Assembly: GCA_016188915.1 (NCBI GenBank)
Contig: JACPGU010000003.1
Span: forward strand, 73,045 to 137,044
From: Candidatus Microgenomates bacterium
Lineage (GTDB): Bacteria > Patescibacteriota > JACPGU01
DNA length: 64,000 nucleotides
Direction: 5' to 3'
The translations under genes and the position numbers were made by a program. Of this stretch, positions 1,042 to 60,297 are shown piece by piece. Positions within the stretch are counted from its first letter, which is position 1. The number at the start of each line of letters is the position of its first letter. The notes under the pieces were generated by a model, which saw nothing but the letters and a program-made list of their open reading frames with translations, had not been told where the DNA came from and made no database searches.

Positions 1042-1159
1042 AATCAACGGAAGATTTTTATTAGCAAGAAAGGAATTAAAAAACACCTCAACGCCCGAAG
1101 TTGGGGGAAGGATAATATCCTATGGACTTTATCGAGCAGATTTTGACAATAGTTAATAA

Positions 1160-1528
1160 ATGGATTGTATGATTGGTAAATATCATCAAGGTTTGACATT
1201 AGAAAAATGGGCCTCTTATGGCACAGACGGCATGATTGGTAATATCGGGAGTGACATTAGTCGCGCTATTTCCGCTCGAGCAAAAAACGACGAACTTCAT
1301 TACCGCGCTTCAGTCAATAGGGCGATAGAGCTGATAGAAATGACAGCGGAAGTCTTGAGAAAAAGCGCCACTCCGTGGCGCGCTAAGGAAATGGAATGCT
1401 TGCGAGAATTGGTTCTCGGCGTGGAAGATAGTAGTATGATTGATCCAGACGGGTTAGAATATGCCGACAATTATTGTATGGAGTTTGCCTTGAGGGCTCA
1501 AAAAACCTTTATTGCAAATCATTCCTGA
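1160..1528 (+). CDS. Hypothetical protein (122 aa)
   Basis: ORF track only. No recognisable motif. Confidence 0.4.
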   Translation: MDCMIGKYHQGLTLEKWASYGTDGMIGNIGSDISRAISARAKNDELHYRASVNRAIELIEMTAEVLRKSATPWRAKEMECLRELVLGVEDSSMIDPDGLEYADNYCMEFALRAQKTFIANHS

Positions 1529-1579
1529 TAAGGTTTAGTTATAATTCTTGCAACTTTACAAATAGGAGGAACGAAGCAA

Positions 1580-1747
1580 ATGTCGAGAATCCCAGAAATA
1601 AAATGTTCATTCTGCGATACTCCCATGGAATATCAAGGAGGACCGAGCGACACGAATCTTCTGATTATGCGATGCCCCAAGAAGGGCTGTGGCTATCAGA
1701 GGACATGTTATGTGGAAGGGACACTAGTGGCGACGCACTCATCTTGA
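1580..1747 (+). CDS. Small zinc-ribbon protein (55 aa), CxxC...CxxC; below the ORF-track size cutoff
   Basis: Strong RBS aggagga at 1565-1571, ATG at 1580. Translation MSRIPEIKCSFCDTPMEYQGGPSDTNLLIMRCPKKGCGYQRTCYVEGTLVATHSS has two Cys pairs typical of a Zn ribbon. Confidence 0.5.
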   Translation: MSRIPEIKCSFCDTPMEYQGGPSDTNLLIMRCPKKGCGYQRTCYVEGTLVATHSS

Positions 1748-2259
1748 GGGAAAAAGAAAGGAGCAGAGTATTGTCCAAGATACTGAATACTTTCGTGAAG
1801 GCTTCTGGTGATTTGTTGGAAAACGAGAAACTTTTAGCTTTCTTGGCGACAGTGGAGAAACAATGCCATCACTTGGTTGTCTGCGTGGGTGGCGGGAGTC
1901 AGATTAGCCAAGCGCTGGCGGAGAAAGGGATCGAAAGTCAATTCGGCCCTTTGGGGCGAGAAATTACCACCGACGAAGGCGGGGCAATAGCTTCAAGGAT
2001 TCTGAATGATAACGCTCGGGCATTTAGAGCCCGATTGTCCCAGAAAGGGATTAGCGCCGTAGTGCTGACTCCGATTTTGCAAATCGGGGGGCTCATCTGC
2101 CTTGTCAATGGCGACATCTATACTTTGAGTGCCTATCATGGCTTCAGTCAGCTTTTCGTGGCAACGCGAGCCGATCGGTTGGAGAAGAAAAGAGAGGAAT
2201 TCGCTCGCTTTGGCACGTGTCTTGCCCCGCAAGGGAAAATTGAGATTCTAGGGCTTTGA
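1705..2259 (+). CDS. Amino-acid-kinase-family-like protein, divergent/short; start uncertain (ATG 1705 or TTG 1771 after RBS aaaggag)
   Basis: LVVCVGGGSQISQAL...GREITTDEGG resembles the vVvHGGGpqI...GlRvTD core of carbamate/isopentenyl-phosphate/NAG kinases. The N-terminal KlGGS motif is missing. Overlaps the Zn-ribbon ORF in another frame. Confidence 0.35.
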   Translation: MLCGRDTSGDALILREKERSRVLSKILNTFVKASGDLLENEKLLAFLATVEKQCHHLVVCVGGGSQISQALAEKGIESQFGPLGREITTDEGGAIASRILNDNARAFRARLSQKGISAVVLTPILQIGGLICLVNGDIYTLSAYHGFSQLFVATRADRLEKKREEFARFGTCLAPQGKIEILGL

Positions 2260-2281
2260 AAAAGGAGGTGAATTTTTTACA

Positions 2282-2310
2282 AACGGCTCGTGAAAAGAGC
2301 CGTTTTTTGT
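2282..2310 (+). terminator. Rho-independent terminator
   Basis: aacggctc-gtgaaaa-gagccgtt followed by ttttttg. Confidence 0.7.
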
Positions 2311-2514
2311 TTGCTCAAACTTCCTGAAACTTCCTGTCGAGTCGTCACCCCAGCAGGGAGCTTGCCATTAATAGTGATGGTGCTCAAGAAGTCGCTTTAT
2401 GCAGGAAAAATTTGCTCTATTTGAATAAATTTGATACAATATAGGGACAACATATCGGAAAAGGGAGTCGCCCCTTAAAAACCGGCAAAATAGACGAGGA
2501 AAGGATGGAGAGCC

Positions 2515-3531
2515 ATGTCGATCGTTTCAATATTCTACTATGTTTATTTCATAAACATAGTAGCGGGATTAATTATCGGAGCAATCATTTTGCTGGATTC
2601 AGAAAATGAAGGATTTGCCCCGATTGTTTTGAGCGTTGCGTCTATGGCGCTGTCATGGCTTATTGTCTACCAAGACAGAACCTTATGGATGATTCTTGCC
2701 ACAATACTATTCACTCTTTGTTGGGGCTATTTTCTTTTGCTTGATCAACGAGGTGGCTTTTATGGCAAAGAGATTACTATTACGATGTGGATTCTTCTTG
2801 CTCTGAGCGTTTTGTGCGTCGCCAATCTGTACGGTCGCAATAGATATCTCGCCACAGAGAAGCGCATTGTGGTAGAAGAGCAACTGAAGAAGGCGGCTGA
2901 GGCCGAAAAAATAGCGGTAAAAGTGGCGGAGGAAGAAGAAAGAAAGGAGAAACCCCCCATTACCGTCGGACTACTCGAGGAAAGAGTCAAGGAAATAAGT
3001 GGCATCCGAAACAGATTGAATGTAAAAGAGCTGGAGTTCTCTAGCTTGAAGGAGGGTTTTAAAAAGGAGGTAGAAAAGCACAAAGACGAGATCAAAGAGG
3101 AGTGTAGAAAAAGAGCTCAATGTCCGTCTTCTTTCGATCAGGCATTGGCCGATATCGTTATTAGTTCTAGTCTTGCCTTGATCCAGAAAAAGCGCACCTA
3201 TATCACCGCTCTGGGCAAGCTAGAATTTCAGATAAAAAAGAGTAGCCAAGAGCTACGCTTTTTAGCAGAATCGGCGGAGGCCGATGCTCGGCTGATGAAG
3301 GTCGCAGGTAATGAGGGATCCAGGGAGTTGGTCGAGGCTATCGACAAGATCATCAAAGAGAGTATCGCCTATGACAATTTCTCCAAAGAAATGATGGAGA
3401 AAATCAGTGGTGCTAAATCTCAAAACCTCGAGCCCATTTGGAAGGAGATTTTGGCCGAAGAAGAATTTAGGATTCAAGAAGGAGAGCGAAAAAGGCAGGA
3501 AAGTGAAGATGCTTTGCTGAATACTGAATGA
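2515..3531 (+). CDS. Membrane-anchored protein: N-terminal TM helices, coiled-coil, conserved C-terminal helical domain (paralog of 4885..6051)
   Basis: Hydrophobic N-terminus. The C-terminal segment LIQKKRTYITALGKL...FLAESAEADARLMKVAG...ELVEAIDKIIKES aligns to the C-terminus of the 4885..6051 product. Confidence 0.6.
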   Translation: MSIVSIFYYVYFINIVAGLIIGAIILLDSENEGFAPIVLSVASMALSWLIVYQDRTLWMILATILFTLCWGYFLLLDQRGGFYGKEITITMWILLALSVLCVANLYGRNRYLATEKRIVVEEQLKKAAEAEKIAVKVAEEEERKEKPPITVGLLEERVKEISGIRNRLNVKELEFSSLKEGFKKEVEKHKDEIKEECRKRAQCPSSFDQALADIVISSSLALIQKKRTYITALGKLEFQIKKSSQELRFLAESAEADARLMKVAGNEGSRELVEAIDKIIKESIAYDNFSKEMMEKISGAKSQNLEPIWKEILAEEEFRIQEGERKRQESEDALLNTE

Positions 3532-3552: not shown

Positions 3553-4383
3553 ATGTTTAGGAAAACGTGGGATTTTTTGAAGAATAATTTTCCAGTTTGG
3601 CTAAAGAACCTCTTGGTTTTTTCCATACTGGCGATTATCATGATTGGAATCTTCAGGTTCGGCAATGCCTTGGCCGTGTTTTTGGTCTTTCGATCAATAG
3701 CCAAAAGCATTGCTTTCAATTCGGGATTACCGGATTGGATCGCCTACTTGATGGCAATTCCTCCAGTAGCGATGCTGGCTTACGGGATGAAGATGTCTTT
3801 TTCTTTTTCGGCAAAAAAACGAAGAATAGGCTACGCCCTCTTGTGTGGTTTTTTCTTTGTCCCCATGATGATAATGGGGTTTATCAGCAAAGACCATGTC
3901 TATTATCCCGATGGCCGACCGGCGAAATGTTACGCCGCTACACTAACGGGATATGAGTATGTCTCTTGCGAATGGAAGGTTCACCCTGTTTTTGGGACGG
4001 CAGTAAAGCCTGTTGTTCCAGATATCATTCATGCTATATGGGCGCAGGAACGCCAAGTGCCGGCGGTGGAGAGAATCGTTCCAACGAAAGACACTCGTTT
4101 TTATACGACTGATGGACAACCCCTCATCTGGTTTTATCAAAGACCGGATGGCAGGATAGAACTTTTCGGTCGACCCGGCTATCATCCGCAATTTGGCAAT
4201 GTTCAATTGCAGCCGGCTACCAGTGAAATTGTTTTGAAAATTTTTGAGCATTTGGAAAAAGAAGAGAGGAATATGGTCATTTTCTCCAATGACTCAAAAA
4301 AGCAAGACGAAATCTCATCTTCCAGCACAAGGGAGCTACAAAAGCTTCGCGATCTTTTCGTCACGATTGGGGGTGATAACTAA
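3553..4383 (+). CDS. Polytopic membrane protein, hypothetical (276 aa)
   Basis: Several hydrophobic segments in the first ~120 aa, soluble C-terminal half. No motif recognised. Confidence 0.5.
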   Translation: MFRKTWDFLKNNFPVWLKNLLVFSILAIIMIGIFRFGNALAVFLVFRSIAKSIAFNSGLPDWIAYLMAIPPVAMLAYGMKMSFSFSAKKRRIGYALLCGFFFVPMMIMGFISKDHVYYPDGRPAKCYAATLTGYEYVSCEWKVHPVFGTAVKPVVPDIIHAIWAQERQVPAVERIVPTKDTRFYTTDGQPLIWFYQRPDGRIELFGRPGYHPQFGNVQLQPATSEIVLKIFEHLEKEERNMVIFSNDSKKQDEISSSSTRELQKLRDLFVTIGGDN

Positions 4384-16028: not shown

Positions 16029-16149
16029 ATTACGAGCATAGCATAACTAAAAGTGAATGTAAAGGGTTCCACTTTTTCTTTTTCGCTTGATAAAGCTATT
16101 TTGGCAAAGTCGGACTTTGCCGAGGGGAACTTTGCCGAGGAGAAGGAAA

Positions 16150-54823: not shown

Positions 54824-55474
54824 ATGAAATATACCAACATTATCTTTGATTTCGATGGGACATTAGTTGATACGAGACCCGGGATAATAAAGGCTTTTTA
54901 TGCTGTCATGACTGATATGGGTATAGAGCCGGCCGATGAAAAGACTATTGGTGAGCTAATAGGAGTCCCATTATCTCAATTTCTTGAAGTTCTCCTAAAA
55001 ACTAATGATGCCAAAATCATTAAGAAAGGGTCAGAATTATTCAAAAAACATTATGATAGAGAATATTCTTCTGACAATATTTTGTATCCCGGTATTCCGG
55101 AGTTACTAGAAAATATTAAGGAAAACTCTGGTAGCAGTTTTGTTGTTAGTAATAAAATAGATGCTTTCTTGAATAAAATATTAGAACAGCATGATATTAG
55201 AAAATATTTCCAATCCACCAAGGGAACTGATGGGACAGGAAGAGGCTCTCAAAAATCTGATTACGTCAGGGATTTGGTTGAAGAAAATAATCTAGATCGA
55301 GCTATAACTGTCATTGTAGGTGATAGGAGAGATGATGTAGTAGCAGGAAAAGACAACCTGATACATACTGTAGGCATAACCTATGGCTATGGCTCAAGGG
55401 AAGAATTAGAGGAAGTGGGAGCTGAGATTGTAGTCAGAGATGTTGAGGGCCTGAAGAGTGTTTTGATGGAATAA
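54824..55474 (+). CDS. HAD-superfamily phosphatase
   Basis: IIFDFDGTLVDT motif I. Later GDRRDDV motif. Confidence 0.7.
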   Translation: MKYTNIIFDFDGTLVDTRPGIIKAFYAVMTDMGIEPADEKTIGELIGVPLSQFLEVLLKTNDAKIIKKGSELFKKHYDREYSSDNILYPGIPELLENIKENSGSSFVVSNKIDAFLNKILEQHDIRKYFQSTKGTDGTGRGSQKSDYVRDLVEENNLDRAITVIVGDRRDDVVAGKDNLIHTVGITYGYGSREELEEVGAEIVVRDVEGLKSVLME

Positions 55475-55499
55475 AGGCTTATTTTATAAGATTGAAAGA

Positions 55500-57449
55500 A
55501 TGTTAAAGAATTTTTATCGTAAACTGCCCTTGAAATATCGTCGAGATATAAAATTTTTTTATTACTCTTTTTTTAGGTTTACGGAAAGCTTAAAGAAAAA
55601 ACCAAAATTGCGGGATATACCTGATGGGCCGAAGATTTCTGTGGTGGTGCCGGTTTTTCGGCACGAAAGGTATTTGCGGGAGTGCATAGATTCTATTCTA
55701 AGCCAAAGCTATACGAATTTTGAATTAATTTTAGTGAACGACGATCCTGATAATAAGGAGATAGAGAAAATCTTACGAGAGTACGAGAACAATCTTAGGG
55801 TAAAAATTTTGCACAATGAGAGTAATATCCATGTTTCCGAGAGCTTAAACAGGGGCATCAGAAAATCTACTGGAGAGTACGTCGCTTTTGTGGACTGTGA
55901 TGATGCTTTGTGCCCGTATAGTTTGCAAGAAGTGGTAAAATATATTTTGGAAAACGGCTCTTGGCCAGATTTTATTAGCACGAAATACGTGGTTATCAGC
56001 GAAAAAGGGCGACTGATTTGTTGTTATAATAGACCGAAAAACCCTAATATTTTTCAAAATATGTGGGCGAGTCATTTAAAGGTGATAAGACGAGATGTTT
56101 TTGAAAAGATTGGCTATTTTGACCCAAAATGGAGCGGTATTCAGGACTATGAATTTGCTTTGCGGGCAGAAAAAAATGGTTGCCAGATCCATTATTTACA
56201 AAAATATTTATACAAATACAGGGAGCATGCCGAAACCTATACTACGCAAAAATTGAAATCGCAGTATGAAAGGTCGGATGCCCTGAAAGAACTTTACGCA
56301 CTGGATAAGAAGCTAAAAATCCTCTATCTAATCACGCAATCCGAGTGGGGTGGGGCACAGAGGTATGTCTACGATCTCGCGACAAATATGGTGCGTGATT
56401 TTGAAGTGGTGGTGGCGGGAGGGGGGGAGGGGCATTTGTCGGAGAGACTGGAACAGACGGTAGTGCGGTTTGTGGCCTTGAAGCATTTGATTCGTCCTAT
56501 TAGACCCTTTCGCGATTTGCTGGCGTTTTTTGAAATATTAACGCTTTTACGGCGGGAAAAGCCGGATATTCTGCATCTTAATTCCAGCAAGGCAGTAGTT
56601 TTGGGATCTTTAGCGGGACGTCTTTCTCGCTTCCGGCCAAAGATCATCGCCACTGCGCACGGTTTGGCATATCATGAACCAGGCTCAATATGGAAAAAAC
56701 AATTTTATAAACTTTTTGAAAAAATCGGTTTTGGTTTGGCGGATAGGATAATTTGTGTTTCCCGTTTTGATTATGGCAGTGGAATAAAAAATCATGTTTT
56801 TAAGGCCTCAAAAGCTACCATTATCTATAACGGTCTACTTGCGAAGGTGTCACCTTCGCAAGTAGACGTGAAGGCCAAGTTTTTGCATAAAGATGAAGCA
56901 TGTGTAGTTGGCACTATCGCTAATTTTTATCCCAACAAAGGCCTGGAGTATTTATTGCGAGTAGCCAAACTGATTCAAGACAAGCGTTCTGATATTAGCT
57001 TTGTTGTAGCTGGAGATGGAGTAGGGAGGCGAGACATAGAATCGCAAATCGCAGAATTGGGACTGAAAAATGTGAAGCTTATAGGATTTATCGACGATAC
57101 GGAAAAATTTCTGCAAGAATGCGACATCTTCGTCTTATCATCGCTCAAAGAAGGTTTACCTTATGTTATTTTAGAGGCGATGGCGATGGGCTTGCCTATT
57201 GTAGCAACAAAAGTCGGAGGAGTGCCGGAGATGGTGGACGACAATGTAGCCGGGTTTCTTGTCTCCCCGGCCGATTCAGAAGCACTGGCTGAAAAAATAG
57301 AAATATTAGCTAATGATTCTTCGCTCTGTCTTCGTTTCGGCCAAAGTGGCGCTAGAAAATTGCGGATTCAATTTACCCCAGACAAGATGCTTTGCGACAC
57401 AAAAAGTATCTACATAAAACTACTTGCGAAGGTGACACCTTCGCAATAA
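55500..57449 (+). CDS. Bifunctional GT2 (N-terminal) - GT4 (C-terminal) fused glycosyltransferase; carries two in-frame REP-like palindrome insertions
   Basis: GT2 ISVVVPVFRHERYLRECIDSILSQSYTNFELILVNDD. GT4 EGLPYVILEAMAMGLPIVATKVGGVPEMV. REP copies at 56824-56856 (encoding LLAKVSPSQVD) and 57419-57448 (encoding the C-terminal LLAKVTPSQ). Confidence 0.7.
   Translation: MLKNFYRKLPLKYRRDIKFFYYSFFRFTESLKKKPKLRDIPDGPKISVVVPVFRHERYLRECIDSILSQSYTNFELILVNDDPDNKEIEKILREYENNLRVKILHNESNIHVSESLNRGIRKSTGEYVAFVDCDDALCPYSLQEVVKYILENGSWPDFISTKYVVISEKGRLICCYNRPKNPNIFQNMWASHLKVIRRDVFEKIGYFDPKWSGIQDYEFALRAEKNGCQIHYLQKYLYKYREHAETYTTQKLKSQYERSDALKELYALDKKLKILYLITQSEWGGAQRYVYDLATNMVRDFEVVVAGGGEGHLSERLEQTVVRFVALKHLIRPIRPFRDLLAFFEILTLLRREKPDILHLNSSKAVVLGSLAGRLSRFRPKIIATAHGLAYHEPGSIWKKQFYKLFEKIGFGLADRIICVSRFDYGSGIKNHVFKASKATIIYNGLLAKVSPSQVDVKAKFLHKDEACVVGTIANFYPNKGLEYLLRVAKLIQDKRSDISFVVAGDGVGRRDIESQIAELGLKNVKLIGFIDDTEKFLQECDIFVLSSLKEGLPYVILEAMAMGLPIVATKVGGVPEMVDDNVAGFLVSPADSEALAEKIEILANDSSLCLRFGQSGARKLRIQFTPDKMLCDTKSIYIKLLAKVTPSQ
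56824..56856. repeat. REP-like palindrome copy 1 (perfect 16-bp arms, 1-nt spacer), inside the GT2-GT4 gene
   Basis: tctacttgcgaaggtg-t-caccttcgcaagtaga. Confidence 0.8.
57419..57448. repeat. REP-like palindrome copy 2, at the 3' end of the GT2-GT4 gene and 11 bp upstream of the RAYT start
   Basis: ctacttgcgaaggtg-a-caccttcgcaataag. Confidence 0.8.
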
Positions 57450-57458
57450 GATAAAATC

Positions 57459-58157
57459 ATGCAACGGCAAATAGAACAAAAACAAAAAAATGCCGATTAT
57501 GGCATATTTCATATCTATAATCGTGGGACAGAAAAAAGAGATATTTTTTTAGATATGTACGATTTTAAAAGATTCTATGATGGTATACGGGAATTTAATA
57601 CTACTATACCGGTTGATCTACGTGAAAGAATACGGGAAAAAAAGAAACGCGAAGGTGACACCTTCGCAAATAGTGGGCTAGCAAGAGGAGAAAGGCTGGT
57701 AGATGTGTTGTGTTTTTGTTTAATGCCCAATCATTATCATCTTATTTTAAAGCCCCTCATAAAGAATGGTGTGACTGTATTTATGCGTAAATTAGCCACT
57801 GGCTATTCATCTTATTTCAATCGTAGATATGAAAGAAGTGGTAGACTATTCCAAAATGTTTTTAAAAATAAGGAGATAGATTCTGACGAATCATTTTTGT
57901 ATGTCTCTGCCTATCAACACATCAATCCTATAGCTGCTAAGTTGGCGAAAAAACCATCAGATTGGCTATGGTCTAGCTATAAACACTTTATCGGGGTAAG
58001 GAATGATGATATACTGCTAGGGGTAGAAAAAATATTGAGCGTTACATCACTTGAGTATAAAAAATATGTTGAGGGATTAATAGATGAAAATTGGTTTAGC
58101 AACCATAAAAAAAATTTACTTTTAGAGACAGACGATGATTACTACTTGCGAAGGTGA
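57459..58157 (+). CDS. IS200/IS605-family Y1 (HuH) transposase, REP-associated type (RAYT)
   Basis: YGIFHIYNRGTEKRDIF N-terminal strand. HuH motif LMPNHYHLIL. C-terminal Tyr-containing helix SAYQHINP. An internal REP copy encodes an inserted loop KKREGDTFANSG. Confidence 0.65.
   Translation: MQRQIEQKQKNADYGIFHIYNRGTEKRDIFLDMYDFKRFYDGIREFNTTIPVDLRERIREKKKREGDTFANSGLARGERLVDVLCFCLMPNHYHLILKPLIKNGVTVFMRKLATGYSSYFNRRYERSGRLFQNVFKNKEIDSDESFLYVSAYQHINPIAAKLAKKPSDWLWSSYKHFIGVRNDDILLGVEKILSVTSLEYKKYVEGLIDENWFSNHKKNLLLETDDDYYLRR
57646..57670. repeat. REP-like palindrome copy 3 (shorter arms gcgaaggtg/caccttcgc) inside the RAYT ORF
   Basis: aacgcgaaggtg-a-caccttcgcaaatag. Confidence 0.7.
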
Positions 58158-58175
58158 CACCTTCGCAAGTAATAA
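58139..58175. repeat. REP-like palindrome copy 4, overlapping the RAYT stop codon and lying just upstream of alaS
   Basis: ttactacttgcgaaggtg-a-caccttcgcaagtaataa. Confidence 0.8.
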
Positions 58176-58188
58176 AATGGGTATTTTT

Positions 58189-60228
58189 ATGACATCGAAA
58201 GAATTGCGACAGAAATTTTTGGATTTTTTTGAAAAGAAGGGTCATATAATTATCCCTTCAGCTTCTTTGATTCCGGAAAATGATCCGACGACGCTCTTTA
58301 CTAGCGCCGGCATGCAGCCAATGATGCCGTATTTGCTTGGCGCCGAGCATCCGGGCGGTAATAAAGTAGCGGACTCACAGAAATGTTTTCGCACGCAAGA
58401 CATCGACGAGGTTGGAGATCAGCGCCATACGACTTTTTTTGAGATGCTTGGTAATTGGTCATTTGGTGAATATTTTAAGCGTGAGCAGATACAGTGGATG
58501 TCGGAATTTCTTTTCGATGAATTGATGCTTGACCCAAAGCGGGTGTATGTGACGGTCTATCGTGGCAATACCGAGATAAATATCGGAAAAGACGAAGAGT
58601 CGGCTGAGTTGTGGCAAAAAACATTTGAGGAGCGAGGTGTCGATGCCGAGATCGCTGATATGGCTGAAGAGGATGGCATGAGTGGTGCCCGTATTTTTTA
58701 TTATGGTGATAAAAAAAATTGGTGGTCTCGAGCAGGTGTGCCACACGATATGCCACTCGGTGAACCAGGTGGACCCGACAGCGAGATGTTTTGGGATTTC
58801 GGTGAGGATCTCGAGCTTCATGAAAGATCGCCATACAAAGACCAAGTCTGTCATGTGAACTGTGATTGCGGAAGGTTTTCCGAGATTGGCAACAATGTCT
58901 TTATGCAGTATGTAAAGGTTGGTACGGGTTTTGAGCCACTATCAAAGAAAAACGTGGACTTTGGCGGGGGGCTGGAGCGCATGACGGCTGCTACGAACGA
59001 CTTGCCGGACATCTTCATGATCGATGTCTTTGATGCTGCGCGGGAAAAGCTTGAGGATATAAGCGACAAAAAGTATGGAGAGAACGAGGAAGAAACGCGC
59101 GCCTTTCGGGTGATCTTGGATCACATTAGGGCCGCGATGTTTTTGGCAGCAGATGGTGCGGTGCCGTCCAACAAAGACCAGGGCTACTTCACTCGTCGCC
59201 TCATCCGTCGTGCGATCCGATATGGGCATCAACTGGGTATTTCCGATAGTTTTTGTGGTGATATCGTAGACGCATTTATCACTACTTACGGCGAAGCATA
59301 TCCAGATATTGGCACAAATAGGGACACGATTGTTGAAGAAGAAGAAAAGTTTAATCGCACTATAGTTGAAGGACTCAAGGTGGCACACAAGATGTTTGCC
59401 GAGAAGACACCGATAGAAAAATCCAAATTCCATAAATTCATGTTGCTTCATGACCACACTCAGATTTTGAAAGAATTATGGAAAAAGAAAAGAGGAGGGG
59501 AGGATTATTCTATTCAGAAAGCGAACATAACCCAAGGGGAGATCGACAATGCGATAATAACCGGAGAAGAAGGGTTTTTGCTTTATCAATCATATGGTTT
59601 CCCGATGGAGATGATTATTGAGTTGGCGACAGAGGCACGACTCTTTTTTCATCGCGGTGAATTTCGTCGTGAACTCGAAAAGCATCAAAACTTATCTCGT
59701 AGTGCTTCAGCGGGGAAATTCAAAGGCGGGTTGGCGGATAATTCCGAGGAAACGACGAAGCTTCATACTGCCACGCACCTTCTCCTCAAATCTTTGCGGA
59801 CGGTTTTGGGCGACGAAAATATCAATCAAAAAGGCAGTAATATCACGGCTGAAAGATTGCGGTTTGATTTCAATTTTCCCCGCAAACTAGAACCGGATGA
59901 GCTGAAAAAAATAGAAGAAATGGTTAATGAGCAAATTAAACGCGATCTCAAGGTAGAGCGGCTGGAAATGTCGTATGATGAAGCAAAAAAAATGGGGGCG
60001 ATAGGCGTTTTTGAAAATAAATATGGAGAAAATGTTTCAGTTTATAAAATGGGGGGTGATCCCTCGACTCCCGATGGTCGCTCGGGACAAGCTTTCAGCT
60101 TGGAGCTTTGTGGCGGTCCACACGTGGAGCATACGGGACAGCTCGGGAGCTTCAAAATAATCAAAGAAGAGGCCTCTTCGGCCGGGGTTAGGAGGATTAA
60201 AGGGACACTAGGAGGGGGTAAGAAATAA
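58189..60228 (+). CDS. alaS: Alanine--tRNA ligase, short form (catalytic + tRNA-binding + editing domains; lacks C-Ala domain)
   Basis: MTSKELRQKFLDFFEKKGH. FTSAGMQPM. VADSQKCFRTQD. Editing-domain HTATHLLLKSLR. 680 aa. Alternative ATG at 58177. Confidence 0.8.
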   Translation: MTSKELRQKFLDFFEKKGHIIIPSASLIPENDPTTLFTSAGMQPMMPYLLGAEHPGGNKVADSQKCFRTQDIDEVGDQRHTTFFEMLGNWSFGEYFKREQIQWMSEFLFDELMLDPKRVYVTVYRGNTEINIGKDEESAELWQKTFEERGVDAEIADMAEEDGMSGARIFYYGDKKNWWSRAGVPHDMPLGEPGGPDSEMFWDFGEDLELHERSPYKDQVCHVNCDCGRFSEIGNNVFMQYVKVGTGFEPLSKKNVDFGGGLERMTAATNDLPDIFMIDVFDAAREKLEDISDKKYGENEEETRAFRVILDHIRAAMFLAADGAVPSNKDQGYFTRRLIRRAIRYGHQLGISDSFCGDIVDAFITTYGEAYPDIGTNRDTIVEEEEKFNRTIVEGLKVAHKMFAEKTPIEKSKFHKFMLLHDHTQILKELWKKKRGGEDYSIQKANITQGEIDNAIITGEEGFLLYQSYGFPMEMIIELATEARLFFHRGEFRRELEKHQNLSRSASAGKFKGGLADNSEETTKLHTATHLLLKSLRTVLGDENINQKGSNITAERLRFDFNFPRKLEPDELKKIEEMVNEQIKRDLKVERLEMSYDEAKKMGAIGVFENKYGENVSVYKMGGDPSTPDGRSGQAFSLELCGGPHVEHTGQLGSFKIIKEEASSAGVRRIKGTLGGGKK

Positions 60229-60270
60229 AAAAGGACGCTGGTGCAAAATGCGCGCAAGCGTCCTAATGGA

Positions 60271-60297
60271 CGGCCTACTTGCGTAGGCCGGTTTTCC
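60271..60297 (+). terminator. Terminator hairpin after alaS
   Basis: cggcctac-ttgc-gtaggccg followed by gttttcc. Confidence 0.55.

Follow-up and report, generated by a model that had tools for sequence, protein, structure and literature searches.

How does a repetitive palindrome come to be read as protein in two neighbouring genes, and what holds its copies in that place? The question is raised by a 64-kb stretch of DNA from a Candidatus Microgenomates bacterium (contig JACPGU010000003.1, positions 73,045 to 137,044; hereafter the window), in which a short hairpin-forming repeat resembling repetitive extragenic palindromes (REPs) occurs four times in 1.34 kb. Two of the copies are hosted by a GT2-GT4 fusion glycosyltransferase (GT) gene (55500-57449, + strand; 649 aa, MBI2448555.1). 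All four flank or sit within the gene that follows it, which encodes an HUH/Y1 protein resembling the REP-associated tyrosine transposases (RAYTs) and is the only RAYT gene in the 64 kb (57459-58157, + strand; 232 aa, MBI2448556.1). We consider it probable that the four palindromes are the cognate hairpins of this adjacent RAYT-like transposase of single-stranded DNA (ssDNA), that gene and hairpins make up a REPtron-like unit, and that the unit belongs to a family widespread in Patescibacteria (the candidate phyla radiation, CPR).

The repeat has the core pattern TTGCGAAGGTG-N-CACCTTCGCAA. Copy 1 (56833-56867) is a perfect 35-nt palindrome of the form 17+1+17, GTCTACTTGCGAAGGTG-T-CACCTTCGCAAGTAGAC; the first-pass annotation, which had noticed it at 56824-56856, was right about its existence but placed it about 11 nt too low. 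Copy 2 (57420-57451, core 57424-57446) coincides with the last nine GT codons. Copy 3 (57647-57674, with a perfect palindrome at 57649-57667) lies inside the RAYT open reading frame (ORF), and copy 4 (58139-58175, core 58146-58168) overlaps the RAYT stop; the four are recorded without a strand. At its centre, copy 1 has a T, whereas copies 2-4 have an A. CTAC stands 5' of the hairpin in copies 1, 2 and 4, and the tetranucleotide on the 3' side reads GTAG, TAAG, ATAG and GTAA in copies 1 to 4, respectively. A search with the 23-nt core TTGCGAAGGTGNCACCTTCGCAA, allowing at most 3 mismatches, yielded four matches in the window (56839, 57424, 57647 with 2 mismatches, and 58146), compared with an expectation of 0.00 derived from 100 dinucleotide-preserving shuffles. 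A chance origin of the four copies is ruled out. Folded as ssDNA, copies 1-4 gave energies of -18.9, -10.6, -8.6 and -14.2 kcal/mol, and z values of -8.2, -6.8, -3.4 and -8.1 relative to shuffled controls, copy 3 thus lying only moderately below them. The exact REP core TGCGAAGGTGNCACCTTCGCA had no match in GTDB genome contigs or in JGI metagenome contigs, and a scan of 55000-59000 against Rfam at a permissive threshold returned a chance-level match only, so that no Rfam family covers the repeats.

Each of the three reading frames of the repeat is put to use. Frame 0, LLAKV(T/S)PSQV, serves copies 1 and 2; frame 2, CEGDTFA, serves copy 3; and frame 1, YLRR followed by a stop, serves copy 4. 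Copy 1 thus provides the in-frame peptide LLAKVSPSQVD (GT residues 446-456), a translation that the first-pass annotation had given and that is correct for the 33 nt at 56835-56867. It had also read copy 2 as the C-terminal LLAKVTPSQ of the same protein and copy 4 as the C terminus and stop of the RAYT, and both readings hold: copy 2 encodes GT residues 641-649 with the TAA stop (57447-57449) directly after them, and copy 4 encodes YLRR and the TGA stop (58155-58157) within the palindrome, the A of the stop being the central base. The core of copy 2 ends 12 nt upstream of the RAYT ATG. Copy 3 is read as KREGDTFAN (RAYT residues 63-71), and its centre lies 21 aa before the HUH motif. Copies 1 and 3 fall wholly within intact ORFs (the 649-aa GT and the 232-aa RAYT), in-frame and stop-free. 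The claim that REPs act as coding or terminal codons of three proteins therefore stands for the in-frame use and the stops but not for the number, since the palindrome is coding sequence in no more than two proteins, namely the GT and the RAYT. The downstream neighbour, alaS (alanyl-tRNA synthetase; 58192-60228, + strand), begins 23 nt after copy 4, and the palindrome is not part of its coding sequence. A longer alaS ORF from 58135 would take in copy 4; the Pfam tRNA-synt_2c match starts at residue 4 of the protein that begins at 58192.

Ordinary transcription terminators, or mere chance similarity, are scarcely credible as an explanation of such repeats, even though copies 2 and 4 stand at gene ends and T-runs follow copies 2 and 3 on the minus strand. 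A terminator scan called none of the four palindromes (0/4) on the coding strand, two of the copies lie within ORFs, and both the shuffling result and the missing Rfam match speak against either origin. The only + strand terminator call nearby (56853-56874) concerns a separate small hairpin, part of which coincides with the right arm of copy 1.

The protein encoded between copies 2 and 4 has the hallmarks of a HUH/Y1 transposase. Its HUH motif is H92-Y-H94, and the catalytic tyrosine is Y152 in the sequence YQHINP. In an alignment of the RAYT with 27 homologs, H92, H94, Y152 and N156 are invariant, and the pair N156-P157 is invariant or nearly so. The protein matches Pfam Y1_Tnp (PF01797) with 26.7 bits at a cut-off of 23. 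A profile built from the alignment found 4ER8 (E. coli TnpA_REP) as its sole PDB match; likewise, a Foldseek search with the AlphaFold2 (AF2) model (predicted local distance difference test score, pLDDT, of 83.4) ranked 4ER8 first (E 1.8e-6), followed by IS200/IS605 TnpA structures at ranks 2-25. The idea of the first-pass annotation that the REP-like hairpins are tied to the adjacent RAYT is thus borne out by the Y1_Tnp score and by the best fold and sequence match. With the core of copy 2 before its ATG and copy 4 over its stop, the gene is flanked on both sides by the same hairpin, and a spacer of 9 nt separates the GT stop from the RAYT start. In the AF2 model, the residues encoded by the repeat fall in coil, where pLDDT drops to <50 at positions 68-73 and 224-232. 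The G+C content of the RAYT region (57450-58200) is 34-36%, below that of the GT (up to 49%) and of alaS (44-54%), which is consistent with a foreign or mobile origin.

The homologous loci tie the hairpins to the gene as well. We examined 80 RAYT loci from GTDB genomes, mostly metagenome-assembled genomes of Patescibacteria; 77 were usable, and subsets of 76, 61 and 60 underlie some of the counts. Loops were delimited by HxYNRG and LMPNHxH, and a loop was scored as matching when it held 12 nt or more of the flank palindrome. In 70/77 loci, a stretch of 12 nt or more is common to the upstream and the downstream flank. The HUH-proximal loop carries such a stretch of the flank palindrome in 31/77 loci, or 39-40% over sets of 76-77 loci, compared with 0/77 for a control zone of the same length just after the HUH motif (Fisher p = 2e-11), and a second zone further downstream holds a flank-palindrome copy in 13 of the 77. 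The match is specific to the locus: loop-flank matches of at least 15 nt were found in 23/76 comparisons of a loop with its own flanks and in 13/5700 comparisons with the flanks of other loci. A palindrome that differs from genome to genome recurs inside ~40-50% of the homologous RAYT ORFs, at up to three sites. The closest homolog of the window RAYT (locus L002, 46% identity) illustrates the pattern. Another palindrome, TTCTTGATGTC-C-GACATCAAGAA, stands there in the three positions that copies 2-4 hold in the window: before the ATG, in the same loop (as a 43-nt perfect doublet), and over the stop.

The internal sites are confined in position and in reading phase. Twenty-four cases make up hot spot 1 (12-29 aa before the HUH motif), and 15 of them share one phase read as x-(Q/E)-G-x-(T/S)-(L/F); copy 3 of the window belongs here. 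Hot spot 2, 11-16 aa after the catalytic tyrosine, comprises 11 cases (9 in the phase of hot spot 1), and hot spot 3, 2-15 aa before the stop, comprises 10, of which 8 are in the other open phase; the difference in phase between hot spots 1-2 and hot spot 3 is significant (p = 0.002). In the set of 61 loci, the median distance from the end of the upstream REP to the RAYT ATG is 28 nt, the REP centre lies no more than 40 nt from the stop in 52/61, and the stop itself falls within a REP in 19/61.

Copy 3 had been taken for an extra loop in the window RAYT. The homologs contradict this, because the hypervariable loop is present in all of them at similar length and the site is a REP site throughout the family: the median loop length is 67 aa with an intact REP and 63.5 aa without, a difference of ~3 aa. 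In one subfamily, in which all loops measure 63 aa, the same site carries intact copies (DLKLQGSTLLE) as well as decayed ones (DLKLHGKTLAA, LREQGTTIQD). Copy 3 thus occupies a homologous site shared across the family, at which the match to the flanking hairpins is either maintained or lost by decay.

Several homologous loci show further variations. In L052, two REP copies (2915-2946) overlap the last codons and stop of the upstream ORF (979 aa from stop to stop), the one other locus with a copy-2-like overlap with the 3' end of the upstream gene. In L047, a 925-bp unit made up of the RAYT with its upstream, internal and stop-codon REPs is tandemly duplicated (1152-3120), and its REP, CTTGCGAAGTCGGACTTCGCAAG, has outer arms in common with the REP of the window. 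In L069, a REP doublet downstream of the RAYT (3872-3922) follows ATG 3724 in the frame of a long ORF and may represent an N-terminal REP-coded extension, or a 5' untranslated region if the gene starts with the GTG at ~3942 before a membrane helix.

In the explanation that we favour, the hairpins of the family have set places, namely just upstream of the start, in the variable loop that precedes the HUH motif by 12-29 aa, in some cases 11-16 aa past the catalytic tyrosine, and at or over the stop, and copies 2, 3 and 4 fill three of them. Copy 2 would be the upstream hairpin doubling as the last nine GT codons; given the extreme compactness of the genome, with its 9-nt GT-RAYT spacer, upstream hairpins would be absorbed by the GT. 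Copy 1 would be an extra, inverted copy that settled 585 bp further upstream, in the flexible linker joining the two Rossmann-like halves of the GT4 module; among the REP frames, the one used there (LLAKVSPSQV) is alone in being both open and mild. TnpA proteins of IS200/IS605 elements and E. coli TnpA_REP bind ssDNA hairpins and cut beside them by means of an HUH-bound metal and the tyrosine. By analogy, the RAYT of the window would bind and cut beside its hairpins on ssDNA and would copy or replace them locally, with a preference for sites in cis, and selection would keep only those copies that fall in permissive or disordered segments and in open frames.

What copy 1 did to the GT can be judged from the host protein. 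Pfam domains of the 649-aa protein are Glycos_transf_2 (47-154), Glyco_transf_4 (283-445) and Glycos_transf_1 (458-618), the GT4 module being a complete GT-B, and the copy 1 peptide (446-456) fits exactly between the end of Glyco_transf_4 at 445 and the start of Glycos_transf_1 at 458. The ORF is unbroken, the protein agrees with its homologs at every invariant column of their alignment (43/43), and the AF2 model of the GT4 half has a pLDDT of 91.8 and a predicted template modelling score of 0.88. The GT is thus not visibly a pseudogene, and the prokaryotic genome annotation pipeline (PGAP) of NCBI likewise annotates both the GT and the RAYT as intact genes. The low-confidence parts of the GT4 model are the linker blocks 181-200 (mean pLDDT 55-61), the only such internal stretch, and the extreme C-terminal tail. 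The REP peptide corresponds to model residues 179-189, in or beside the low-confidence linker; in the predicted structures of the GT and the RAYT alike, therefore, REP-coded segments coincide with low-confidence coil. The fusion of GT2 and GT4 in one chain appears to be unique among the matches listed in a search of 5.8 billion proteins: 118 of the 119 matches below the self-match are GT4-type homologs that are stand-alone proteins of 356-462 aa, and the only other GT2-type match, P0071 (563 aa), has no GT4 half.

A first expectation had been that copy 1 would appear as an 11-aa indel relative to orthologs. We determined the linker length in the 118 GT4 homologs by a column-based count of the segment between the conserved NG and the VGT strand. 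It spans 13-67 aa; the mode, found in 31/118, is 22 aa, which is exactly the length in the window GT. Removal of 9 residues would leave 13 aa, as short as 2 of the 118, and removal of 11 would leave 11 aa, shorter than any (0/118). The hidden Markov model (HMM) of the homologs aligns the residues encoded by copy 1 to match states and prefers the native sequence (458.6 bits) to the 9-residue (455.2) and 11-residue (451.2) deletions. The expected indel was therefore not recovered by the homolog alignment. The family-typical length of the linker makes it very probable that the GT still folds and works with copy 1 in place, and copy 1 is real, in-frame and probably harmless.

These data bear on whether copies 1 and 2 arose by clean insertion, that is, whether a REP, either 33 nt long or made up of CTAC and the 23-nt core (27 nt), entered a REP-free GT gene and added 9-11 residues, with a second unit placed before the old stop. 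We regard this course of events as possible but doubtful. Deletion of the 27 nt recreates N-G-V-D, the usual GT4 motif (NG[IVL][DE] in the homologs); this is weak evidence, because the V and the first base of the D codon come from the REP's own GTAG. The linkers of the closest GT clade (47-50% identity) are 15-19 residues long, compared with 22 here. At the other end of the gene, removal of the 27 nt of copy 2 would let the protein end in SIYIK, like the C termini of the homologs, and the native C-terminal residues 'kllakvtpsq' extend past the homolog profile, where they are assigned to insert states, and belong to a tail of low pLDDT; copy 2 thus probably lengthened the GT ORF, by ~9 residues as judged from the alignment. 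Against an insertion at copy 1, on the other hand, stand the native linker at the family mode, the rarity or absence of homologs as short as the deleted forms, and the preference of the family HMM for the native protein by 3.4 and 7.4 bits. Copy 1 may stem from 27 nt inserted into a short linker; alternatively, a linker of normal length may have been replaced by a patch, or converted, with copy 4 as the source.

Copies 1 and 4 form a pair of their own. Positions 56836-56865 of copy 1 are the exact 30-nt reverse complement of 58142-58171 of copy 4, the arms are 1276 nt apart, and the pair encloses 1.3 kb with the C-terminal domain of the GT and the RAYT. The stretch from copy 1 to copy 4 recurs in an independent Logan contig (1335 bp, present in 2 samples), both ends of which lie exactly in those copies. 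Such ends could mark an invertible segment, or merely the break that an assembler makes at any repeat. A functional switch, in which recombination between copies 1 and 4 or action of the RAYT inverts the 1.3 kb and causes phase variation of the GT while the internal hairpins are autoregulatory, would suit the fully complementary arms, the ends of the contig and the way in which internal hairpins track flanking ones across the family. We nevertheless find it improbable: assemblies would be expected to break at repeats in any case, 30 bp offers little length for homologous recombination, and no other locus has so distant an inverted pair enclosing part of a foreign gene.

The same contig ends raise the suspicion that copy 1 is an artefact of assembly, owing to a false join at a repeat or to a palindromic chimera, since de Bruijn graphs come apart at palindromes that exceed k, and copy 1 is where the Logan contig stops. 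That copy 1 arose in this way is very improbable. The two Rossmann halves of the GT follow each other across copy 1 in the same frame and order, colinear with the 118 homologs; a false join would still need a REP at this place in the reads; and PGAP annotates an intact gene. Colinearity of the homologs across both halves, together with the absence of a second C-terminal domain after copy 4, also led us to reject a composite transposon that runs from copy 1 to copy 4 and brought in a foreign GT C-terminal domain.

Several observations weigh against the REPtron-like explanation that we prefer. Outside the cluster, the remaining 62 kb of the window contain no further copy of the core at up to 3 mismatches; over this stretch the palindrome is not dispersed, and a defining property of classical REPs is therefore not seen there. 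Across the family, too, REP copies more than 80 nt away from the RAYT are scarce (60 loci, flanks of +/-3 kb); among 61 loci, the few copies that lie beyond the RAYT and its immediate borders mostly fall in short ORFs, and a copy in a long foreign gene occurs in one clear case, copy 1 of the window, with L069 ambiguous. Copy 1 is thus unexplained by the canonical layout of the family. The RAYT scores 52.2 bits against NCBIfam NF047646, 'REP-associated tyrosine transposase', below the cut-off of 80; by this score it is a distant relative and not the canonical equivalog. On the side of the GT, no ortholog of >50% identity was found among 5.8 billion proteins (the best reached 50% over the GT4 half), and an empty-site or short-insert allele (GT flanks with a gap of 0-30 nt) had no match in metagenome contigs. 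The activity of the RAYT and the mobility of its hairpins are predictions.

A further question is what keeps the internal hairpins of the RAYT genes matched to their own flanks. If it were selection and not passive local re-insertion or gene conversion, the enzyme would recognise its own gene or mRNA, which could serve autoregulation or self-limiting cleavage, and the pair of copies 1 and 4 could in addition enable it to flip or disrupt the GT; we think this rather unlikely.

Among known systems, the locus is closest to the REPtrons (E. coli TnpA_REP, 4ER8; PMC2817692, PMC5581495), with which it shares an HUH/Y1 gene flanked by short GC-rich hairpins, a best match to 4ER8 by fold and by profile, and a CTAC/GTAG tetranucleotide at the foot of the hairpin. 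The differences are considerable. The window protein is ~65 aa longer than E. coli TnpA_REP and 14% identical to it; unlike the E. coli REP, its hairpin is a near-perfect palindrome in which GTAG lies 3' and not 5', within the stem, so that the polarity is opposite; and the 64 kb, in contrast to classical REPtrons, contain no dispersed hairpins and have copies inside the RAYT ORF at conserved sites. The locus also resembles IS200/IS605 elements (IS608, ISDra2 TnpA) in its Y1 HUH fold, in the subterminal hairpins on both sides and in the ~750 bp unit from copy 2 to copy 4, whereas the RAYT sequence is closer to TnpA_REP, there is one unit in 64 kb, and no tnpB-like ORF is adjacent. In IS200, the left-end hairpin near the start codon regulates translation; to our knowledge, a hairpin internal to the ORF is not a described feature of that element. 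The locus further resembles the Rickettsia palindromic elements (RPEs) in that a palindromic repeat is read in-frame as a peptide segment. RPEs are in-frame palindromic repeats that are tolerated as extra peptide segments on protein surfaces; they are 100-150 bp long, occur in tens to hundreds of copies and appear as clean indels relative to orthologs. We know of no dedicated transposase alongside them.

The first-pass annotation had regarded REPs in coding sequence as unusual, since such systems are normally intergenic. They are uncommon but not new in kind: the accessible sections of Di Nocera et al. 2013 (PMC3733652) describe REPs and REP dimers entirely within intact ORFs and read in-frame, as well as REP termini that supply the stop codons of flanking ORFs, and they recall the in-frame RPEs of Rickettsia. 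The intragenic cases reported in those sections come from dispersed families in REP-rich Proteobacteria, Opitutus and Rickettsia. Copies 1, 2 and 4 are of the same kind as the intragenic REPs described there, with the difference that all copies here lie within 1.3 kb of the RAYT. REPs inside RAYT genes are another matter. A term search of Nunvar 2010 (PMC2817692) found no mention of an intragenic or coding-sequence location, the accessible part of Bertels 2017 (PMC5581495) does not mention REPs inside RAYT genes, and RAYT genes are not among the hosts of intragenic REPs named in the accessible sections of PMC3733652. A full-text literature search found no report of REPs conserved inside RAYT genes. 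The internal RAYT copies, conserved and co-varying with the flanks in many CPR lineages, thus form a pattern that appears to be undescribed.

Other palindromes occur elsewhere in the window. A lone intergenic palindrome at 16103-16121, GGCAAAGTCGGACTTTGCC, is of odd length with a AAGTCGGACTT core, the same build as the REPs of L047 and L017; it has no second copy and the window no second RAYT. Two more long single-copy palindromes lie at 2535-2563 and 36-68; one of these, CTACTATGTTTAT-TTC-ATAAACATAGTAG, has CTAC/GTAG ends like the REP and stands at the 5' end of the ORF 2515-3531. Between alaS and the convergent gene downstream of it, 60232-60292 contains two hairpins unrelated to the REP. 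A candidate REP there, ACGGCCTACTTGCGTAGG at 60270-60287 (GGCCTAC-TTGC-GTAGGCC), was rejected as a separate 7-bp hairpin whose 9-nt arm match is at chance level.

Taken by itself, copy 1 is one more case of a known curiosity, a REP tolerated in a gene. Together with copy 2 it does show that proteins of a very compact CPR genome can take up a selfish hairpin, both as part of a linker and as terminal codons. The wider meaning lies in a large, little-studied RAYT-like family of the CPR, in which the hairpin is written into permissive loops of the enzyme's own ORF and co-varies with the hairpins in the flanks. As contigs break at these sites, the pattern is a warning for annotation and assembly. 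The internal hairpins offer an explanation for the 'hypervariable loop' of these RAYT-like proteins, and the matched pairs of protein and hairpin are a natural data set for the co-evolution of HUH/Y1 enzymes with their DNA sites.

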